Shown: positions 6,011-19,751, numbered from the stretch's first letter. The stretch: DNA of 21,560 nt from Candidatus Heimdallarchaeota archaeon (GCA_023139025.1 JAGLOH010000003.1:1-21560), one strand, 5' to 3'. Numbers and translations: made by a program. Notes: generated by a model not told the origin, from the sequence alone.

Positions 6011-7108
6011 TTGGTCAAAACAACTATAAGTTTACTCAAAGCTGATATAGGATCATGTCCTGGTCATGTAACTGTTTATGAGCCTTTAATGGTTAGAGCT
6101 GAAGAACTGATGGAAAAAGCTAAGGATGAAAATGTCATTCTTGATTTCGTTGTGTTCAATGCTGGCGATGATACTGAACTCCTTTTATCACATTCTAAGG
6201 GAGTTGACAATGAAGCGATACACAAGCTTGCTTGGGATACTTTTATGACACTTGGAAAGGAAGCTAGAGAGATAGGACTCTATGGTGCTGGACAAGATCT
6301 GTTGAAAGATACTTTCACAGGAAACATAAAGGGAATGGGTCCTGGATGTGCTGAATTTGAATTTGAGGAACGTCCAGCAGAGCCTTTACTTGTTTTTGCG
6401 ATGGATAAAACAGAACCAGGGGCATTTAATTATCCTATTTTTCAAATGTTTGCTAATCATTTCAATACAGCTGGTTTGATTATAGATCCAAAACTGCATG
6501 AAGGGTTTACTTTTTCTGTTATGGATGTCTATAAGAACAAAATTGTTGATTTAAGCTGCCCAGAACAGATGTATGATCTTCTTGCGTTAATTGGTGCTCC
6601 AGGAAAATATGTTGTTAAGTACGTTTATAGCAAAACTCCAGATCTTGGAATAGCAGCAGCTATTTCAACAGATAAATTATCCCTTATAGCCGGTAAGTAT
6701 GTAGGAAAAGATGATCCTGTTGCAGTGATTAGGAGTCAAAGTGGTTTTCCAGCTGTAGGAGAGATAGTTGAGGCTTTTACTTTGGGTCATTTGGTTTCAG
6801 GTTGGATGCGAGGTTCCCATCGCGGACCACTTATGCCTGTTTCACTTGAATATAGTCAATGTGTCCGATTTGATGGTCCCCCTAGAGTTGTTGCACTAGG
6901 TTTTCAATTGAAAAACGGCATATTCAAAGGAGGTGTAGATTTATTCGATGATCCATCTTTTGATTCTACACGAACAAGAGTCAATGAAATTGCTGAATAT
7001 ATCCGTAGGCATGGACCTTTCGAACCTGGTCGTCTTCCTTTGAGTGAAATGGAATATACAACATTACCCGGTGTGCTTAAGAAATTGGAGGATAAATTCC
7101 ACGATTAG
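6011..7108 (+). CDS. fbp: Bifunctional fructose-1,6-bisphosphate aldolase/phosphatase (class V FBPase, FBPA/P)
   Basis: (M)VKTTISLLKADIGSCPGH matches the characteristic N-terminus MKxTxSxIKADxGS..GH of this archaeal-type family, and length (~365 aa) fits. I prefer TTG 6011, preceded by AGGTGAT (6000..6006, SD-like), over the listed GTG 6002, which lies inside that SD. Confidence 0.9.
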   Translation: MVKTTISLLKADIGSCPGHVTVYEPLMVRAEELMEKAKDENVILDFVVFNAGDDTELLLSHSKGVDNEAIHKLAWDTFMTLGKEAREIGLYGAGQDLLKDTFTGNIKGMGPGCAEFEFEERPAEPLLVFAMDKTEPGAFNYPIFQMFANHFNTAGLIIDPKLHEGFTFSVMDVYKNKIVDLSCPEQMYDLLALIGAPGKYVVKYVYSKTPDLGIAAAISTDKLSLIAGKYVGKDDPVAVIRSQSGFPAVGEIVEAFTLGHLVSGWMRGSHRGPLMPVSLEYSQCVRFDGPPRVVALGFQLKNGIFKGGVDLFDDPSFDSTRTRVNEIAEYIRRHGPFEPGRLPLSEMEYTTLPGVLKKLEDKFHD

Positions 7109-7551
7109 TCTTGAATTTCATCTCTTTTTCTTTCTTCCTCTCTTGTTTTTTCAAGTCGTATCTCTTTTTCACTTAAAAGCATGTAAATAAAATATCTTAT
7201 TGGTTCATGAAGTGGTTGATAGATACTTGGATTAAAATCATGAAGATGAGTACATAGATCGTCAATAACAAATTCATCTGTTTCAAGGTCGTAAATCAAA
7301 GGATAGTATCTACACCCTTCTGGTCTATCCTCATAGATAGAACATCTTTTATCATTTAGAAAGAAACATCGACCATCTATGTTTCTTAAAACCATAAATC
7401 CTTCTTTTTCTACTAGAAACTCATCAATTTGGAATCCTAATTTTTCAATTCTTGTTATGTCTTTTTCTCCTAGAGGCATTTCTGTTTCTAGACAGCATTC
7501 ATAACAATTGTCTGCATATGGACAATAGAATTCTAAATCTGGAAGAGTCAT
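7105..7551 (-). CDS. YkgJ/UPF0153-family cysteine-cluster (putative Zn/Fe-S) protein
   Basis: Cys cluster FYCPYADNCYECC plus downstream DGRCFFL..KRCSIYEDRPEGCRYYP is typical of the CxxCxxCC family. The ATG at 7551 (M10) avoids overlap with the upstream gene. Its stop codon overlaps the convergent fbp stop (7105..7108). Confidence 0.75.
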   Translation of the reverse strand: MTLPDLEFYCPYADNCYECCLETEMPLGEKDITRIEKLGFQIDEFLVEKEGFMVLRNIDGRCFFLNDKRCSIYEDRPEGCRYYPLIYDLETDEFVIDDLCTHLHDFNPSIYQPLHEPIRYFIYMLLSEKEIRLEKTREEERKRDEIQD

Positions 7552-7555
7552 TTTT

Positions 7556-8941
7556 TCACCTTCGTGCTTGAATCTCAATTACTGATTCCATAAGTTTTCC
7601 TTTAAATTCAATTGCTAGTTCTTCTATTGTTTCCTCATTATCTGCTTCAATTGTCATTCTAATTACAGGTGAAGTATTAGATGGCCTAATTAGAACCCAG
7701 CCTTCTTTCAAGTTGATTCTAACACCATCCATAGTATTAATATCCTCATATTTTGATAGTAATTTCTTCTTTAGTAAATCTACTGCAGCAAATTTGATAT
7801 CATCTTCGCAATGAATTTCTTCCTTTCTTAAGGGATACGTTGGGATTTTATCTACTAAAGTTGACAATCTTATCTTCTCTTTATTAAGTATTTCTGCAAT
7901 CTTAAGAGGTGTAACAAGTGCATCATCAAAGAGAAAATATTCAGGTAAAATAATATGACCACTAGATTCAACACCCAAGGGCGATTTTTCGTTTTTTGCC
8001 TCGATTGTCAAAAAGGTGTGTCCAACAGGAATCTGTTTTACTCGATAACCTAAAGGTTCAAGTTGTTCGGCTACAGATTTTGAACATTCTACGTTTGCAA
8101 TAATTGTCCCTTCTTTTTTAGATAAGCCATAAAGACCAATAATTATTCCTGTTTGATCTGCAGAGAGAATTCTCCCCAAATCATCTACGATTACAGCTCT
8201 ATCTCCATCTCCATCAAATGCTACTCCAAAATTACATCCTTTCTTTGTAACTGCTTTAACCAATTCAGTCAGATTTTTTGGTTTTGGATCAGATGGTCTT
8301 CCTGAGAAAGTAGGATCAGTATCACAATAGATTCGTGTAATTTCAATTCCCAAGGATGAAAAAATTTTTGGAGCTGATAATGTGGTGCTACCACCACCGC
8401 AATCTAGTGCAACTTTCATTTTTTCTGTGAATTTGAATTTTTGTTTAAAAAACTCCTCATACTTATCCTTAATCTCATAGGAAATTGAACTTCCAATTTC
8501 TCTCCATCCCACAAGTAAATATTTTTCATCTATAGTTATATCTCTAATCTTCATTAATTCTTCTTCTGAAAAACCAACACCGTCTGAATGATAGAATTTT
8601 ATGCCGTTCCATTCAGGTGGAAGATGGCTTGCTGTTACAAACGCTGTTGCTGTTTTTTCTAAAAACCACCCCGCATAAAGGGTTTGCCCGAATGCTGTTG
8701 TACCTACGTAAACTACATCAATTCCAGTTGCTGTTACCCCAGAAATAAAAGAATAAACTAATGGGATACTAGACTGTCTAATTTCATTGCCCACAACAAC
8801 TTCTTTGCCTTTTAATGTTTCTTTAACATATGTCCCAAAGGCTAAACCTATTTTATACATTAATGGTGGAGAGATATCCTTATTGTAAATTCCTCGTATA
8901 TCATATGCTCGAAATATATTTGGGGAGATATCTTTGTTCAT
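7556..8941 (-). CDS. Phosphohexomutase family (phosphoglucosamine mutase / phosphomannomutase / phosphoglucomutase)
   Basis: IFRAYDIRGIY at the N-terminus, phosphoserine loop TASHLPPEWNGIKF (variant of TASHNP), Mg site FDGDGDRAV, sugar-binding GVESSGH. Substrate is not assignable from sequence alone. Confidence 0.9.
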   Translation of the reverse strand: MNKDISPNIFRAYDIRGIYNKDISPPLMYKIGLAFGTYVKETLKGKEVVVGNEIRQSSIPLVYSFISGVTATGIDVVYVGTTAFGQTLYAGWFLEKTATAFVTASHLPPEWNGIKFYHSDGVGFSEEELMKIRDITIDEKYLLVGWREIGSSISYEIKDKYEEFFKQKFKFTEKMKVALDCGGGSTTLSAPKIFSSLGIEITRIYCDTDPTFSGRPSDPKPKNLTELVKAVTKKGCNFGVAFDGDGDRAVIVDDLGRILSADQTGIIIGLYGLSKKEGTIIANVECSKSVAEQLEPLGYRVKQIPVGHTFLTIEAKNEKSPLGVESSGHIILPEYFLFDDALVTPLKIAEILNKEKIRLSTLVDKIPTYPLRKEEIHCEDDIKFAAVDLLKKKLLSKYEDINTMDGVRINLKEGWVLIRPSNTSPVIRMTIEADNEETIEELAIEFKGKLMESVIEIQARR

Positions 8942-13986: not shown

Positions 13987-15132
13987 TCATAAACATACGA
14001 TATCTTTTGGTGTGTTTGAAAGTCTTATTACTCCCTCTTTTATCACAATACAATCATCTTCTAGACGTACGCCAAATTCACCAGCAAAGTATAACCCTGG
14101 TTCTACAGTAATTACTGAATTCTCTAGTAAGTTTTGAGCTGGTCTCTCTGGATAGGACTTTCTAATGCCTACACCGATATCATGAGTCTCAATACCAATT
14201 GGATGTCCTGTAGAGTGAATGTATAACTTTTCATGGTCATAACCAAATTCTTCAAATTTGTCTCTTACAGCTTGTTCAACGATATCTGAAGGAATTCCTG
14301 CTTTGATTTTAGTATAAGCCGCTTCCTTTGCTTCATGAACAGCTTCATAAGCTCTAAGAACTTCCTCGTTCGGATTGCTACCTATCCAGTATGTATGCGT
14401 AATATCAGAATTGGACATATCATAAGCAACTCCATAATCAATTAGAAGAACTTGATTTTCTTTGATTTTACCAGTTCCTGCTTTATGATGAGGTATAGCA
14501 GCATTGGGCCCTGAAGCTATTATAGGTTCAAAGGCTACTCCTCCTCTTTTATTACACTCAAATTCAATTATTGCTGCTAATTCCTTTTCTATCATGCCAG
14601 GTTTAATTAATGGTTCAACAACATCTTCCATCAACTCTTCTGCAAGTTTAGCTGAAATTTTATGATTTTCAATTTCTTTCTTGGTTTTGACAGCTCTTAC
14701 ATCATAGATAATCTCATTAGCTGAAATATAATTCAGATTTTTATTCTGATTAGTTAGAGCTTTGAAAGCCCCACTAGTTAAAATATCGTAATTTAGTTTC
14801 GTAAACACTTCTTTCTCTTCAACAAAATTAAGTGCAATTGTTGAGTTATCTGAGATATCATTGAATAGTTTACTTACTAATTCTGTAAGTTCATTCCCTT
14901 GCTTGTAAGCTTTAATATCATAGGTTTTTTCATCCACAAGCATTTCTTCCATTCTTGATGTGATAACAGAGGGTTTTCCTGTTTTTGGAATAAGAGTTAA
15001 AGTAGCTGATGAAATCCATTTTTCATGTAAATATTTTTGATGAATATCATGAGAATGATGACAGAAAATTATCCATCCATCAACATTATGTTTATCTAAA
15101 ATCGCTTGAATTCTTTCTACTTTTTCATTCAA
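13987..15132 (-). CDS. M24-family metallopeptidase (Xaa-Pro aminopeptidase/dipeptidase, creatinase-N + pita-bread fold)
   Basis: Metal ligand context: PHHKAG, LLIDYGVAYDMSNSDITHT, HSTGHPIGIETHD, TVEPGLY, VRLEDD. TTG start 15132 overlaps the cofC stop by 8 nt. Confidence 0.85.
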   Translation of the reverse strand: MNEKVERIQAILDKHNVDGWIIFCHHSHDIHQKYLHEKWISSATLTLIPKTGKPSVITSRMEEMLVDEKTYDIKAYKQGNELTELVSKLFNDISDNSTIALNFVEEKEVFTKLNYDILTSGAFKALTNQNKNLNYISANEIIYDVRAVKTKKEIENHKISAKLAEELMEDVVEPLIKPGMIEKELAAIIEFECNKRGGVAFEPIIASGPNAAIPHHKAGTGKIKENQVLLIDYGVAYDMSNSDITHTYWIGSNPNEEVLRAYEAVHEAKEAAYTKIKAGIPSDIVEQAVRDKFEEFGYDHEKLYIHSTGHPIGIETHDIGVGIRKSYPERPAQNLLENSVITVEPGLYFAGEFGVRLEDDCIVIKEGVIRLSNTPKDIVCL

Positions 15133-15745
15133 AATCTACACATTCCTTAATTATTTGTTTTATATTTTCTGGAATAGAATTATTTTCCATTATTTCTAAC
15201 AAATCCTTAAATTTGTCTATATCTCTGTAAATGTCCTTACTTTCTAAAATCTCATAAGATATGGCTTCTTTTTCAAAGACATCTCTAAATCTTAAAGCTG
15301 AATTCTTTCCAAAGACCAATGGAAAAGAGTTATTCTTATTGAAAGTTAATATGCTTGTTCCATTATCAGGTGTTGGACCTAGCAATATTTTTTTCTCGAT
15401 TTTGTGTTTGTAAAGAATTTCCTTAATTTCTTTAGATTTAATCAAAGGTAAATCGGCCATAATTATTGTGATTATATCTTCTTTTATCTCTTTGAAAGCA
15501 TTAGTTAGTGATTCATTTAACTCATTTCCCTTATCTGACAGCAAAGTAAATTTTCCTGAAAAACTAAGATTATTTTTCTTTGTTAATATGTATAAGTTAA
15601 CATCTGTTTCGATCATAGATACTTCATTTATAAGATTCTGAGTCATATGATAGAGCAGTTTTCCAACAGAAGTTTCATTCAGATCAGACCTTAATCTGCT
15701 CTTATCACTCGCTGTTCCTCTATAAGGAATTATTATTGCTTCCAT
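15125..15745 (-). CDS. cofC: 2-phospho-L-lactate (or PEP) guanylyltransferase CofC, F420 biosynthesis
   Basis: MEAIIIPYRGTASDKSRL matches the CofC N-terminal signature (xIPxKxxxxAKSRL). IIMADLPLI and GPTPDNGTSIL match the MobA-like nucleotidyltransferase core. cofD lies two genes upstream. Confidence 0.8.
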   Translation of the reverse strand: MEAIIIPYRGTASDKSRLRSDLNETSVGKLLYHMTQNLINEVSMIETDVNLYILTKKNNLSFSGKFTLLSDKGNELNESLTNAFKEIKEDIITIIMADLPLIKSKEIKEILYKHKIEKKILLGPTPDNGTSILTFNKNNSFPLVFGKNSALRFRDVFEKEAISYEILESKDIYRDIDKFKDLLEIMENNSIPENIKQIIKECVDFE

Positions 15746-16538
15746 GGTTTTTCTGTCCGGTATAATCTCTAATTAATCTTTGAATAAACTTTGGATCTCG
15801 AATCAATGGTCTAGCAACAGATACCGCTTTTGCTCCTGCTTCAAGCATTGTCTTAATGTCGCTTATAGTTTGAACAGAGTTATTTCCGATAATTGGTATA
15901 TCAGTTGAATTAACGAGGTTATGGATTATTTTAATATTTGCTCTATTGTGCCCTGGTAGCATAGCATCAGAATGAATGAAACTAATTGAAAATTCATCTA
16001 AAATTCTTACAAATTTTTGATACTCATTAACTAAATATCCTCGAATTTTTATTCCTAAAGGAAATGTAGGAAGTATTGCTCGTATATTATTAAGTAAGAG
16101 TTCCAAACTTTCTAGGTTAATAAGTAAACTTTGTCCCCCGTTGGTGTTGATAATTTCTTCTTGACGACAATGAGCATTTATTTCTATAAAATCAACAAAT
16201 TCAGTAAATTTCTTCAACCACATTTTAGTTAGATTATCAATTCTAGAAAATCTTATGTTAACATTTATGGATTGATGTTTGTAAAGTTTCACAAGATCTA
16301 GATTCTTTATGCACCACAGTCTAGCATCCTTCTGTTTTGTTGGAAGAACAAACTCCCTTCTCCCTCTTTCAATCATTTTAATTGTTGCTTTATGAGATTC
16401 ATAATCTATGGAAAATCCCCCCAAAGTTACCATACTAGCACCATATCTCAGAATTTCTTGGCAAAAATTTCTATTTGAAATACCAGCTAAGGCAGATTGA
16501 ACAATTGGTGGTCTAAATTTAAAACCAAAATCTATCAT
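15720..16538 (-). CDS. Dus/NifR3-related, DHODH-like flavin TIM-barrel protein (archaeal family, function unassigned)
   Basis: PPIVQSALAGISNRNFC (cf LAPMAGVTDxPFR), EINAHCRQEEI..GGQSLL (cf DINxGCPxxKV..GxGSALL), LGIKIRG (cf VKIR), IPIIGNNSV (cf ANGGI), AKAVSVARPLI (cf GVMIGRGAL). The start is 4 nt after the cofD stop and the end overlaps cofC by 26 nt. Confidence 0.65.
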   Translation of the reverse strand: MIDFGFKFRPPIVQSALAGISNRNFCQEILRYGASMVTLGGFSIDYESHKATIKMIERGRREFVLPTKQKDARLWCIKNLDLVKLYKHQSINVNIRFSRIDNLTKMWLKKFTEFVDFIEINAHCRQEEIINTNGGQSLLINLESLELLLNNIRAILPTFPLGIKIRGYLVNEYQKFVRILDEFSISFIHSDAMLPGHNRANIKIIHNLVNSTDIPIIGNNSVQTISDIKTMLEAGAKAVSVARPLIRDPKFIQRLIRDYTGQKNHGSNNNSL

Positions 16539-16542
16539 CGGA

Positions 16543-17469
16543 TTATCTCCTATTTAGAATGAAAGAGGAAAGCTTCTTGGGGATAGTTTCATCACTAAAG
16601 AGAATGTTTTGTGTAAGAACTTCTAAACCTGTTTCTTTTTCAATTTCCTCAATATAATTCTTGTCTGTTTCATGAATTATTATAGTGCTACATATGTCCT
16701 TATACAGCTTTGCCACACCTACAGGAGATATCTCAAAACCTTTAGTTTTCATCAACTTACCTGTCGGTCCACTAACAGGTGCTTCACCAATAATTGGACT
16801 TATAGATATACATCTGCTTTTGTTTTCTTCAAGCTTTTTTCTAATGGGTTTAATGTCAATAATAGGGCCAATACTGGTGATTGGGTTACTAGGACCAATT
16901 ATTATTAATTCTGAAACATCCAATTCATTTAGAGCCAAGTTTGGAACTATTGCTTTTTCAAGATCTTTAACATAAATATCCTTAATTTCGATTTCTCCTT
17001 TGTTTTTCACCCAAAATTCTTGGAAGTGAATATTTCTATCATCCTCAGTAATAATACGCGTTTCAATATGAGTTTCTGAACTTGGAAAAATCTTTGCTCC
17101 AATGCCTAGTTTCTCTCTCAAATTATTGATTATTACAGATTGATTTACTCCTTTTTGCATTTCATTTGTCCGAAAAACTTGCATCCCTAGGTCTTTGTCT
17201 CCTAACTGGAACCAAGTGTTTACCCCATACCTGTTTAGGAAGTCTAGAGTATTGTAAGTTTCATTTAGTACACCCCAGTATTTTTCTGTATCTAATAGAT
17301 TACTAAAGAGATAAAGAATTGTATCAATATCTGGAGAAACATAGTAACCATACACCCAGAAATTGTCTGCAGAATTGGCAATTATAGATATCTGTTCTTC
17401 TGGAATATTACTTCTAAAACCTTGAATTAGCTTTGGGGTTCCTGTTCCTCCAGATAGGAAAGTTATCAT
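16543..17469 (-). CDS. cofD: 2-phospho-L-lactate transferase CofD (LPPG:FO transferase), F420 biosynthesis
   Basis: MITFLSGGTGTPKLIQG is the CofD/YvcK N-terminal signature. IIIGPSNPITSIGPI is the conserved C-terminal motif. GAGGGT SD-like sequence upstream of ATG 17469. Confidence 0.85.
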   Translation of the reverse strand: MITFLSGGTGTPKLIQGFRSNIPEEQISIIANSADNFWVYGYYVSPDIDTILYLFSNLLDTEKYWGVLNETYNTLDFLNRYGVNTWFQLGDKDLGMQVFRTNEMQKGVNQSVIINNLREKLGIGAKIFPSSETHIETRIITEDDRNIHFQEFWVKNKGEIEIKDIYVKDLEKAIVPNLALNELDVSELIIIGPSNPITSIGPIIDIKPIRKKLEENKSRCISISPIIGEAPVSGPTGKLMKTKGFEISPVGVAKLYKDICSTIIIHETDKNYIEEIEKETGLEVLTQNILFSDETIPKKLSSFILNRR

Positions 17470-17502: not shown

Positions 17503-18414
17503 TTATTTAGCTGATTTTTTTGAGGTTTTTGCTTTAGATTTTGTAGCTTTTTTACTTGGTGTTTTCTTTGGTTTTGCGGCTGTCTTACTTGGTGTTTTCT
17601 TTGGTTTTGCGGCTGTCTTACTTGGTGCTGTTTTTGGTTTTGCGGTTGTCTTACTTGGTGCTGCTTTTGGTTTTGCGGTTGTCTTACTTGGTGCTGCTTT
17701 TGGTTTTGCGGTTGTCTTACTTGGTGCTGCTATAGTTTTATCTTCAACTGGTTTTTCAGGTGTTTCTTTAGGCTTTTTTGGAGGGGTTTTTCTTGTTGTT
17801 TTCTTTTTAATAGTTCCTGTTTCTACTAAACGAAGTCTCGATGTTGACTTTATAACGACTCTATAATAAGATCCATTTTCTCCCATATCTGGATTTCGAA
17901 CGATTTTGATAACATCACCAGGTTTTGCTTGAATAGCTTTCACAGCTGCATCACTTTCTAGGATTTTAGGTATTTGATGTTTTTCAATTTGGTATCTCTC
18001 TAAGAAGTACTTTATTTCCGGTGATTTAAGCATAACATGTTGACGAACCATTGCATGATCAAAGATGTTAAACAGTGGATTGTTACTACTTATAATTTCA
18101 ATACCCAGTTTAATTGACTCTTTCTTTGCATAATGAGTTAAAGGTGATTCTGCAATAAGGAGGGCTTCACCAAGCTTTTCTTCCTCTTGTAGTTTTCCTA
18201 AAAGTCTAATTAATTTTACTCCAATTTGAGGATTTTTTGGAAATCGTGCAATTGCTGTTATCTTTTCTTTTTTTTCAGAAATTTTATCAGCATAAATGTC
18301 TAGGAAATCGTCATCTTCTTTGGTATTTTTAATTTGAAATCCTCTAAATTCAAGAATTTCTTTAACACCATCCATTATCCTCTTTTCCTTAGCCTTTTGT
18401 TCTTTAGAAGACAA
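17503..18414 (-). CDS. rpoH: RNA polymerase subunit Rpo5/RpoH, full-length Rpb5-like (N-terminal Rpb5 domain + H domain) with a Lys/Pro/Ala/Thr-rich repeat tail
   Basis: C-domain: NIFDHAMVRQHVMLKSPEIKYFLERYQIEKHQIPKILESDAAVKAIQAKPGDVIKIVRNP...YYRVVI (cf human [60 protein letters not shown]..YRLV). N-domain: RFPKNPQIGVKLIRLLGKLQEEEKLGEALLIAESPLTHYAKKE (cf [43 protein letters not shown]). TTG start 18414 has GAGGT 7 nt upstream; ATG 18375 is an alternative. Confidence 0.8.
   Translation of the reverse strand: MSSKEQKAKEKRIMDGVKEILEFRGFQIKNTKEDDDFLDIYADKISEKKEKITAIARFPKNPQIGVKLIRLLGKLQEEEKLGEALLIAESPLTHYAKKESIKLGIEIISSNNPLFNIFDHAMVRQHVMLKSPEIKYFLERYQIEKHQIPKILESDAAVKAIQAKPGDVIKIVRNPDMGENGSYYRVVIKSTSRLRLVETGTIKKKTTRKTPPKKPKETPEKPVEDKTIAAPSKTTAKPKAAPSKTTAKPKAAPSKTTAKPKTAPSKTAAKPKKTPSKTAAKPKKTPSKKATKSKAKTSKKSAK
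17549..17731 (-). repeat. 33-bp tandem repeat, ~5.5 copies, in frame within the rpoH-like tail (11-aa unit APSKTTAKPKA)
   Basis: The anchor TTACTTGGTG recurs at plus-strand 17552, 17585, 17618, 17651, 17684 and 17717, an exact 33-nt period. The three central copies are almost identical. Confidence 0.9.
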
Positions 18415-18484: not shown

Positions 18485-18841
18485 TTATTTTTCTTCCTCT
18501 TCTGTTTGAAATTTGATATAGTAAGAACCATCTTTATTCCTGCTTACTATTGGTTTATTATCACTACTATCTGAAAGCAATTTTTCAATATCTACTTCAA
18601 AAACTCCATCACTTGTAAGTCTGATCTCTTCAACACCCTCTTTTATATCTGTTTGGTGGATCTCTTTTTCTACAATAAGTTCAAGTTCTTCTTCCTTTTT
18701 CTGATCTGAAGACTTTTCTCTATAAGTTTTGAATTTGAAGGATCCACAGAAAGGGCATCCATTAAGCAGGATTTGACTATTCAACTCAAGTTTCTTATCA
18801 CACAGTGCGCACAGTGTTATTTTATTAGATGGTTTTGACAT
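18485..18841 (-). CDS. Zn-ribbon protein of the archaeal DUF2072/COG3364 type
   Basis: LCALCDKKLELNSQILLNGCPFCGSFKF (cf xCxxCGxxFxDGSxExLxGCPxCGGxKF). The C-terminal EEIRLTSDGVFEVDIEKLL...KDGSYYIKF resembles the family's conserved tail as I recall it. I prefer ATG 18841 (M13); the listed start 18877 would overlap the upstream gene. Confidence 0.6.
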   Translation of the reverse strand: MSKPSNKITLCALCDKKLELNSQILLNGCPFCGSFKFKTYREKSSDQKKEEELELIVEKEIHQTDIKEGVEEIRLTSDGVFEVDIEKLLSDSSDNKPIVSRNKDGSYYIKFQTEEEEK

Positions 18842-18869
18842 ATAATCACTTGACTCCAGATTGGTTTTT

Positions 18870-19730
18870 CTATTCAATTTTTATACTTGAATTATATAAG
18901 AAAGGACCTTTATGATTACATTTTGGACATCCTTTGTTTTCTAGTTCATCAATGGAATTGAATTCACCCTCAGATCCTACATTGAAGCTTTCTCCACATA
19001 TTGTTTTGCACTTATATAGTTGTAAATGACTATTGCTTTCTCTATAATACATTGGCCCATAGTAATGATTTGCTATGGTTTCTTTAGAATTTTGCTTTAC
19101 TTTAATTATGTATAAGTCTGAGACTGTTTTGTTCAGAGGAGTTTTGTACTCATAGCTGTTGAAATCAGTTTTCTTTTCTTCTATTTCCAAATTCATTGTT
19201 TTAATTAGTTCTTCCAGAATGTCTTCTTTTTCACTTTCAATATCAAAAGATAGAAAGATTTTTGATGATGATTCCTTGTTGGCACATTGCACAGCTCTTG
19301 TTAAACCAACCTCTAATCCCTCCTTTGTCATAGGAGGTTCAACAAAAATATAGTCAAATTGATTTTTTAGAATAAGTATCATTCGAACCCGGATATCATG
19401 ATTTACATATCGTATGGTTCTAATCTTTTGTTTAACTTTCATATTAAAAACAATTTCAGGAATTCTTTTGTCTATATCTAGGACTGCTAAATCCTTTGGT
19501 TTTGAAAGAATACCTAATGGTAAAGAAGAAAGATCCATATCCCCTAGAAAAATAATTCTCTTTCCATTATAATCATCAGGATGTTCTAAGAGGACTCTTT
19601 CAATACTAGATGTCTTTGAAACATAATATTGATCATAATCACTATTTGGAATTCCACGTAGCTCTTGTAGTTCAAAATAAGCTTTGTCAATTCTTTCAAA
19701 AAGTTCTTCCTCAGTAGGAATTGTTTTCAT
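18870..19730 (-). CDS. DUF43 / BpsA-like class I methyltransferase-fold (aminopropyltransferase-like) protein with C-terminal Zn ribbon
   Basis: YDQYYVSKTSSIERV, GKRIIFLGDMDLSSLPLG, VLDIDKRIPEIV and FDYIFVEPPMTKEGLEVGLTRA follow the DUF43 order (QxxxTxET..R, GDDDLxS, DIDxR, FxTDPPxTxxG). The C-terminus has CKTICGE...CPKCNHKG. I prefer ATG 19730 over the adjacent TTG 19733. Confidence 0.55.
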   Translation of the reverse strand: MKTIPTEEELFERIDKAYFELQELRGIPNSDYDQYYVSKTSSIERVLLEHPDDYNGKRIIFLGDMDLSSLPLGILSKPKDLAVLDIDKRIPEIVFNMKVKQKIRTIRYVNHDIRVRMILILKNQFDYIFVEPPMTKEGLEVGLTRAVQCANKESSSKIFLSFDIESEKEDILEELIKTMNLEIEEKKTDFNSYEYKTPLNKTVSDLYIIKVKQNSKETIANHYYGPMYYRESNSHLQLYKCKTICGESFNVGSEGEFNSIDELENKGCPKCNHKGPFLYNSSIKIE

Positions 19731-19751
19731 CAAGAAGGGCTAATTTTACTA

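Follow-up and report, generated by a model that had tools for sequence, protein, structure and literature searches.

Why should a gene that looks like one for a tRNA-modification enzyme lie between two genes of coenzyme F420 biosynthesis? The question is raised by a 21,560-nucleotide (nt) stretch of DNA from Candidatus Heimdallarchaeota archaeon (GCA_023139025.1 JAGLOH010000003.1:1-21560), hereafter the window, in which a gene related to those of the dihydrouridine synthases (Dus) is packed between cofD and cofC. We refer to its product, after its barrel fold, as the TIM protein. F420 plays a central part in methanogenesis, in the anaerobic oxidation of methane and in many redox reactions of archaea and bacteria, and it is sought for biocatalysis. 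How archaea build its lactyl linker has been an unsettled question since 2001, and the in vitro data on the substrates of CofC and CofD conflict. We propose, at somewhat better than even chances, that this 272-amino acid (aa) protein is a flavin-dependent ene-reductase of the type of Dus and dihydroorotate dehydrogenase (DHODH) that converts dehydro-F420-0 to F420-0, which would make it a candidate for the enzyme postulated in archaea as "CofX". A C=C-reducing role in the synthesis of the F420 side chain, taking dehydro-F420-0 and phosphoenolpyruvate (PEP) jointly as possible substrates, is likely.

The elements concerned, with positions counted from the first letter of the window, are these:
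16543..17469, minus strand: cofD, 308 aa; open reading frame (ORF) with matches to TIGR01819 and PF01933
15720..16538, minus strand: MJ0144-family Dus/DHODH-like TIM-barrel gene, 272 aa; matches to TIGR00736 and to Pfam Dus and DHO_dh
15125..15745, minus strand: cofC, 206 aa; matches to TIGR03552 and PF01983
16155..16184, minus strand: codons of the invariant loop EINAHCRQEE, residues 119-128, from the translation
16547..16550, minus strand: GGAG, Shine-Dalgarno-like, read from the sequence

ORF calling on the window places the three genes exactly where the first-pass annotation of this DNA had put them, with the same 4-nt gap between the cofD stop and the TIM start and the same 26-nt overlap between the TIM stop and the cofC start, the ATG of cofC lying within the 3′ end of the TIM gene. 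The TIM ATG is preceded, 9-12 nt upstream and within the final cofD codons, by the GGAG, a position consistent with coupled translation. In profile searches CofD scores 296.6 bits against TIGR01819 (cutoff 257) and 141 bits against PF01933, and CofC scores 106.8 bits against TIGR03552 (cutoff 105) and also matches PF01983. The predicted product of cofD is thus the 2-phospho-L-lactate (or enolpyruvyl) transferase that takes FO to F420-0 or dehydro-F420-0, and that of cofC is the 2-phospho-L-lactate/PEP guanylyltransferase.

What, then, is the protein encoded between them? Over 228 of the 231 profile positions it matches TIGR00736, the MJ0144 family or nifR3_rel_arch, at 165.3 bits (E=1.6e-48), and the first-pass naming of a nifR3-related archaeal family was therefore correct. 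This score falls below the curated NCBIfam cutoff of 218.7 bits, so that the Asgard proteins form a divergent branch of the MJ0144 family. Members from Methanocellales and elsewhere likewise score under the cutoff, at 94-195 bits, and the model appears to be tuned to a narrow methanogen core. Proteins that carry the name "MJ0144 family" (P0049, P0051, P0075 and P0113) match the window protein with E-values of 1e-26 to 1e-31, in alignments that span about 85% of the query, and share with it full-length homology and the active-site signature; its closest database relative, at 94% identity, comes from a Heimdallarchaeota metagenome-assembled genome (MAG). In Pfam, Dus is matched at 42.9 bits (cutoff 20.4) and DHO_dh at 33.4 bits. 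A profile search of 1.84 billion representatives returned 67 clusters (counted at 50% identity) at E≤1e-30, and after them ordinary Dus proteins of 300-330 aa; the members of the family have 236-277 aa, those of methanogens 236-250 aa. Judged by this exhaustive search, the MJ0144 family is small, sharply bounded and cleanly apart from Dus. Its name in the NCBIfam release of June 2026 is just "RNA dihydrouridine synthase-like".

The AlphaFold2 (AF2) model of the TIM protein, built from an 83-sequence alignment (A2), is a confidently predicted (β/α)8 barrel with a predicted local distance difference test score (pLDDT) of 93.4 and a predicted TM-score of 0.91. The top ranks of a Foldseek search against the PDB are taken by DusB, TM0096 and the Dus of T. 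thermophilus, with TM-scores of about 0.65 and identities of 15-20%; a second tier consists of DHODH, dihydropyrimidine dehydrogenase (DPD) and the ene-reductases of the old yellow enzyme (OYE) group. The fold class suggested by the first-pass annotation, a TIM barrel of the flavin mononucleotide (FMN) type, is therefore borne out. When the family profile was run against the PDB, DusB was the best sequence match (E=4e-19), and no solved structure of any MJ0144-family member was found. No match to nitroreductase was found in Pfam or NCBIfam, and the fold is that of a TIM barrel, not of FbiB's C-terminal domain.

The AHCRQ motif that had been pointed out as the likely catalytic site is real, and it belongs to the loop at residues 119-128. 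The invariant E-I-N-A-H-C-R-Q aligns with DINMGCPAKK of DusB and DLNAGCPVRK of TM0096, which places Cys124 on the Dus cysteine, as had been supposed; from the Dus literature we take that cysteine to be the catalytic acid. In the 83-sequence alignment E119, N121, H123, C124 and Q126 are invariant and E128 nearly so, and each is found in 81 of the 82 locus copies, among which R125 is substituted in the Odinarchaeota copy only. In all, some 22 residues are invariant across the 83 homologs, down to 29% identity; the same positions are kept in 75-82 of the 82 locus copies. The signature as a whole comprises 29 positions that show little or no variation, being kept in 65-82 of the 82 loci. On a strand map of the AF2 model the invariant residues all lie at the C-terminal ends of β-strands, which is to say on the catalytic face.

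The profile alignment also sets K-I-R on K-I-R, I-H on I-H, G-N-N on the N-G and A-R on the G-R of Dus, so that K164-x-R166, H189, N219 and R243 are in register with the K-x-R, H, N-G and G-R positions by which Dus enzymes hold FMN. At the FMN contacts of Dus the chemical character of the residues is conserved (Gln replaced by Asn94, with Lys164, His189, Asn219 and Arg243), bearing in mind that the β7/β8 phosphate motif is also present in HisF, which is not a flavoprotein. By homology the TIM protein would bind a flavin, probably FMN. As in the Dus-type barrel, NAHC stands on NMGC/NAGC in the cysteine loop and the Lys and His are conserved; the C-terminal helical tRNA-binding domain of Dus is absent. 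The protein must lack that domain because its model ends with a single helix (residues 250-269) after β8 and because the methanogen members are so short; in keeping with this, the Pfam Dus match spans only profile positions 79-226 of 311. Dus has nothing that aligns with residues 34-69, a segment containing two invariant motifs, GG and RGRxEF.

Is there a place in archaeal F420 biosynthesis for such a protein? A review of 2021 (PMC8498797) gives 2-phospho-L-lactate (2-PL) as thought to derive from lactate by an unidentified kinase, CofB. Bashiri et al. (2019; PMC6450877) reported that the CofC of Methanocaldococcus jannaschii (Mj-CofC) uses PEP, that bacteria reduce at the stage of dehydro-F420-0 in an FMNH2-dependent reaction of the FbiB C-domain, and that archaeal CofE has no FbiB reductase domain; they postulated an unidentified archaeal reductase, "CofX". 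Only nitroreductase folds near cofE were looked for in that work, and Lokiarchaeum alone among archaea was found to have an FbiB-like fusion. More recently, MjCofC and MjCofD expressed together in yeast gave dehydro-F420-0 only, and the archaeal reductase was called "yet-unknown" (PMC10949242, 2024). The account of the literature with which this locus was first annotated, that in archaea neither the reductase (CofX) nor the kinase for 2-PL (CofB) has been firmly assigned, accordingly holds. In the literature, no lactate kinase was found in any F420 operon, and we found nothing on MJ0144, its family, or an assignment of the archaeal reductase step in searches from which subscription-only papers fell outside.

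The strongest evidence that the barrel belongs to this pathway is its genomic company. When one genome of each species was scanned, relatives turned up in 487 species; the 80 most similar loci were inspected by ORF calling, hidden Markov model searches and clustering. Twenty-nine of these are of the Asgard type, with labels of Heimdall-, Hod-, Baldr-, Borr-, Frey-, Sif- and Promethearchaeota and, for one MAG among them, of "Thermoproteota". In 27 of the 29, from at least eight lineages, cofD lies ≤60 nt upstream of the TIM gene; in one of the remaining two loci cofD is split, and the other is truncated at the contig end. In 24 of the 29, cofC follows within 70 nt downstream. The outer flanks vary between classes and the core is kept. 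A search starting from CofD found the order cofD-TIM-cofC in Kariarchaeaceae and on one further contig as well, and in Odinarchaeota a divergent member of the family head-to-head with cofD. Given this recurrence across lineages, the packing is far beyond chance. We do not accept tight packing by itself as proof of shared function, which was how the first-pass annotation had argued; the case rests on conservation across lineages.

Four loci have the order cofE-cofD-TIM-cofC. CofE is there a single-domain protein of about 250 aa, and an FbiB-type reductase domain is accordingly missing from these loci. A search started from the CofE of a Freyarchaeota locus gave single-domain CofE proteins of Frey- and Jordarchaeota and Bathyarchaeia only, no Lokiarchaeum fusion being among the matches, and all of the 120 closest relatives are single-domain. 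The bathyarchaeial cofE stands alone.

A second, independent linkage is found in methanogens. In the loci of Methanobacteriales type (n=27), where the TIM protein has 28-34% identity to that of the window, the order is cofE, cofD, GTP cyclohydrolase IIa (ArfA), TIM, component A2 of methyl-coenzyme M reductase (MCR) and methanogenesis marker 9 (Mmp9), and it holds in 24 of the 24 loci with enough upstream DNA. The linkage of the gene to those for the F420 side chain thus takes at least three different forms, from Asgard archaea to Methanobacteriota. The reductase reading also survives the test that the first-pass annotation had set for it, since the synteny is not peculiar to this genome, the cofD/cofC linkage extending across Asgard classes. 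Taken together, the associations cover the genes cofC/fbiD, cofD/fbiA and cofE/fbiB. Where the cluster is split, as in Borrarchaeota, Odinarchaeota and Methanobacteriales, the TIM gene remains with cofD and cofE, and cofC is separated or missing from the locus. The family search found no fusion of the barrel to CofC, CofD or CofE.

It is tempting to propose a reaction from these facts. In Dus and class 1 DHODH, hydride passes between N5 of the flavin and the β-carbon of a C=C bond conjugated to a carbonyl, and a proton passes between a cysteine and the α-carbon. An enolpyruvyl phosphate is such an acceptor, as its terminal CH2 is β to the carboxylate, and MurB is a flavin precedent for the conversion of an enolpyruvyl to a lactyl ether. 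On the strength of the Dus/DHODH mechanism and the MurB precedent, we suggest the following. CofC would activate PEP with GTP, and CofD would move the enolpyruvyl-phosphate onto FO to give dehydro-F420-0. In the TIM protein, N5 of the reduced flavin would then deliver hydride to the terminal methylene carbon (C3) and Cys124 a proton to C2, the family-specific arginines holding the carboxylate and the phosphate. F420-0 with its L-lactyl group would result, to be glutamylated in turn by single-domain CofE. For methanogens, the Cys-rich Mmp9, either fused or adjacent, is a possible point of entry for the reducing equivalents. The candidate substrates are dehydro-F420-0, PEP and EPPG; dehydro-F420-0 is favored over PEP because the closest partners, cofD and cofE, make or consume (dehydro-)F420-0 and because bacteria reduce at that stage.

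How close would such an enzyme be to known ones? With Dus (PF01207; DusA/B/C, TM0096 and the T. thermophilus enzyme) it has in common the FMN-type barrel, the N-x-x-C loop, the K-x-R of β5, the His of β6 and the phosphate motifs of β7/β8, and it would be expected to share their chemistry, in which a C=C conjugated to a carbonyl is reduced and a cysteine donates the proton. It differs in the family-specific invariant residues H123, R125, Q126, E128, R96 and D191, in the unalignable segment from β2 through α2 to RGRxEF, and in a genomic context of F420 biosynthesis instead of RNA modification. With DHODH, DPD and OYE, which reduce or oxidize a C-C bond α,β to a carbonyl or carboxylate, it shares a TIM barrel of the FMN type; the similarity is low, however, and lies mainly in the β7-β8 phosphate-binding region, and the substrate-binding residues differ. 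Class 1 DHODH uses a cysteine base. The C-domain of FbiB and the stand-alone nitroreductase (NTR) enzymes of Thermomicrobia resemble it in the proposed reaction and in having their genes beside those of CofC, CofD and CofE homologues, but a TIM barrel is not the α+β fold of NTR, and the function would be shared by analogy only, as a non-orthologous replacement. MurB offers no more than the enolpyruvyl-to-lactyl analogy, having an unrelated fold that binds flavin adenine dinucleotide (FAD), and it was absent from the searches made here.

Several observations weigh against a dehydro-F420-0 reductase. The inspected loci are the 80 most similar among those of 487 species. In 24 other loci, from Archaeoglobi, Methanocellales, Methanoperedens and Hadarchaeota, there is no cof gene within 6 kb, the Archaeoglobi mostly having the order pyrF-dapF-TIM. 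Conversely, Hecatellales, Hadesarchaea and two further contigs have F420 clusters with no TIM gene locally, and a thermophile operon, cofD-cofC-X1-X2-cofE, has two unrelated genes in the TIM slot. The barrel is fused to Mmp9 in Methanocellales, Methanoperedens and some Archaeoglobi, and in methanogens its gene adjoins that of MCR component A2, which could point to a role related to methanogenesis. As for the substrate, archaeal CofC/CofD prefer 2-PL and LPPG (lactyl-2-diphospho-5′-guanosine) in vitro and accept PEP (Hasan et al. 2022; PMC8764529), in assays which, by the same paper, cannot tell which substrate serves in vivo; should 2-PL come from lactate, as in the classical model, the pathway would call for no C=C reduction. 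The first-pass annotation had arrived at the reductase from the fold, the cysteine, the family and the synteny, and in these it stands; what it missed are the caveats, namely the link to Mmp9 and A2, the lack of any cof gene near the TIM gene in Archaeoglobi, and the F420 clusters of other archaea from which the TIM gene is missing.

Some of these loci have features of their own. In one Archaeoglobus arrangement (L046:6768-9639), a NUDIX hydrolase gene comes next after the TIM gene and overlaps it by 4 nt; then follow genes for a protein with the CinA/FAD-synthase middle domain, RibD_C and a DHH/DHHA2 phosphoesterase. RibD_C is the pyrimidine reductase of riboflavin/FO synthesis, and the arrangement may be a cluster for flavin or deazaflavin precursors. 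A cluster of Hadesarchaea (L087:430-7434) consists of genes for an FrhB-like protein and a luciferase-like oxidoreductase, cofE, cofD, a ferredoxin gene, cofH, cofG and cofC; it is almost complete and has no TIM gene. Another genome of Hadarchaeota (L029) has the MJ0144 family elsewhere. The thermophile operon is found at L088:6576-8682, at the same coordinates in L089 and at L090:6564-8676, on contigs that encode reverse gyrase. X1 and X2 are paralogs of about 352-362 aa with 30% identity to each other and carry a GISGS...SDIDL motif typical of nucleotidyltransferases of the Pol-β fold; their match to PF01909 is only weak, and no PDB relative was found. X1 and X2 may solve the problem of the missing step in another way, for instance by supplying 2-phospholactate.

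Which other function could account for the observations? The nearest in chemistry is the reduction of PEP itself to 2-phospho-L-lactate, in place of lactate kinase CofB. The reaction and the synteny would be the same, the in vitro preference of archaeal CofC/CofD for 2-PL/LPPG and the want of a lactate kinase in F420 operons would be accounted for, and the four family-specific invariant arginines R58, R60, R96 and R125, of which some are in the RGRxEF loop, would suit a small tri-anionic substrate. Yet in split clusters the TIM gene keeps company with cofD/cofE and not with cofC, which favors dehydro-F420-0 over PEP, and the bacterial reduction takes place at dehydro-F420-0. It also counts against a PEP reductase that none is known. 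We therefore hold this to be unlikely, though not negligibly so. An earlier place, in the pyrimidine pathway shared by riboflavin and FO, could be imagined if the FMN-like site bound ribitylaminopyrimidine 5′-phosphate, the β7/β8 phosphate motif being common to non-flavin barrels such as HisF. The gene adjoins that of GTP cyclohydrolase IIa (ArfA) in 26 of the 27 Methanobacteriales loci, and the genes downstream of it in Archaeoglobus would fit. But all archaea need riboflavin, and the family is small; the lineages among the matches are ones known to use F420 or to carry cof genes, and the Asgard partners are the F420-specific cofD, cofC and cofE. No redox step is known to be missing in the riboflavin/FO pathway. 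We consider this early role very improbable. Least credible of all is that the protein is a genuine RNA dihydrouridine synthase and its gene order a coincidence. Dus is its best match in Pfam and by sequence in the PDB, the catalytic Cys, Lys and His positions are conserved, and some database records call such proteins tRNA-dihydrouridine synthases. Against this stand the missing tRNA-binding domain and the shorter chain, the modest TM-scores and identities to Dus, the sharp separation of the two clusters in the exhaustive search, and a membership in operons with cofD/cofC/cofE in several phyla that would not be expected of a tRNA-modification enzyme.

A redox role connected with methanogenesis, in the maturation of a cofactor or of MCR together with Mmp9 and component A2, to which the cof linkage would be secondary, calls for a closer look at Mmp9. 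Examples of the domain (TIGR03277) are:
L076:6017-6493: Mmp9 domain
L059:8485-8964: Mmp9 domain
L050:6730-7104: Mmp9 domain, fused to the barrel

Mmp9 is either fused to the C-terminus of the barrel or encoded by a separate gene two downstream, past that of MCR component A2. Eight invariant cysteines together with one histidine are arranged in two C-x(n)-CC-x5-C repeats, and the domain lacks a Pfam family; an AF2 model from four sequences (pLDDT 61) is too poor for interpretation. The repeats suggest that Mmp9 may be a metal or redox module feeding the barrel. The locus L050, of Methanocellales, has A2, the TIM::Mmp9 fusion and then, at 7107-7955, a weakly scoring CitG-like homologue of triphosphoribosyl-dephospho-CoA synthase. 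The methanogenesis role draws on the recurrence of the fusion in several divergent members, Mmp9 being the sole fusion partner of the barrel, and on the neighborhood A2-TIM-Mmp9 in both Methanobacteriales and Methanocellales. However, Asgard archaea and most Archaeoglobi have the TIM gene without Mmp9 or A2 and with the active-site signature unchanged, the linkage in Asgard archaea is specifically to cofD/cofC/cofE, and Mmp9, with its invariant Cys and its His, might do no more than bring electrons into this same reductase. We regard such a role as quite improbable, and reduction of dehydro-F420-0 remains the reading that we prefer.

The surroundings of the trio in the window (G+C about 32%) deserve a brief description. 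Profile annotation of ORFs found no further F420 genes in the rest of the window, where the genes are of unrelated housekeeping function (gluconeogenesis, PGM, PlsY-like, methyltransferase, GTPase and sulfotransferase). The M24 (prolidase/creatinase-like) peptidase gene at 13987-15132, minus strand, overlaps the cofC stop by 8 nt. An M24 gene follows cofC in 18 loci of Heimdall- and Borrarchaeota, and in Borrarchaeum it remains with cofC although cofC has parted from cofD-TIM; lineage synteny could explain the pairing, and so could a functional connection, for example in trimming the F420 tail. Upstream of cofD, at 17503-18414, minus strand, lies a gene for RNA polymerase subunit H (Rpb5 C-domain), whose product has an N-terminal Mrr-like or inactive restriction-endonuclease domain fused to the Rpb5 C-domain and a long, repetitive tail rich in Lys, Ala and Pro (PSKTTAKPKAA repeats). 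Many Heimdallarchaeota loci, and Kariarchaeaceae as well, have a gene of this architecture ahead of cofD; among the Asgard-type loci, the rpoH-like and M24 genes flank the trio only in Heimdall- and Borrarchaeota. Just upstream of the rpoH-like gene, at 18485-19733, minus strand, are two genes, one for an OapC-like zinc-ribbon protein of the origin-associated kind and one for a protein with BpsA_C, the C-domain of branched-chain polyamine synthase, and an OapB gene is found in related loci (L095). These genes suggest that the region may be close to a replication origin.

What would it mean if the barrel is the archaeal reductase? The TIM gene is the best available candidate for a step of F420 biosynthesis that has been without an enzyme for over twenty years, and it is a concrete one, cloneable and easily testable, in a gene order conserved from Asgard archaea to Methanobacteriales. 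Its confirmation would settle whether archaea start from PEP and would close the last gap in F420 biosynthesis; were PEP itself the substrate, the protein would be the first known PEP reductase. In either case it would be a flavoenzyme derived from Dus, stripped of the tRNA domain and recruited to F420 biosynthesis. A compact archaeal reductase would also become available for heterologous production of F420. For the pathway, it would show a TIM barrel doing the work of the nitroreductase fold at one and the same step, a case of non-orthologous displacement. For the family, now annotated as a tRNA-modification enzyme, it would provide a function, and possibly one for methanogenesis marker 9 as well, which in methanogens would be the barrel's dedicated electron-input module.

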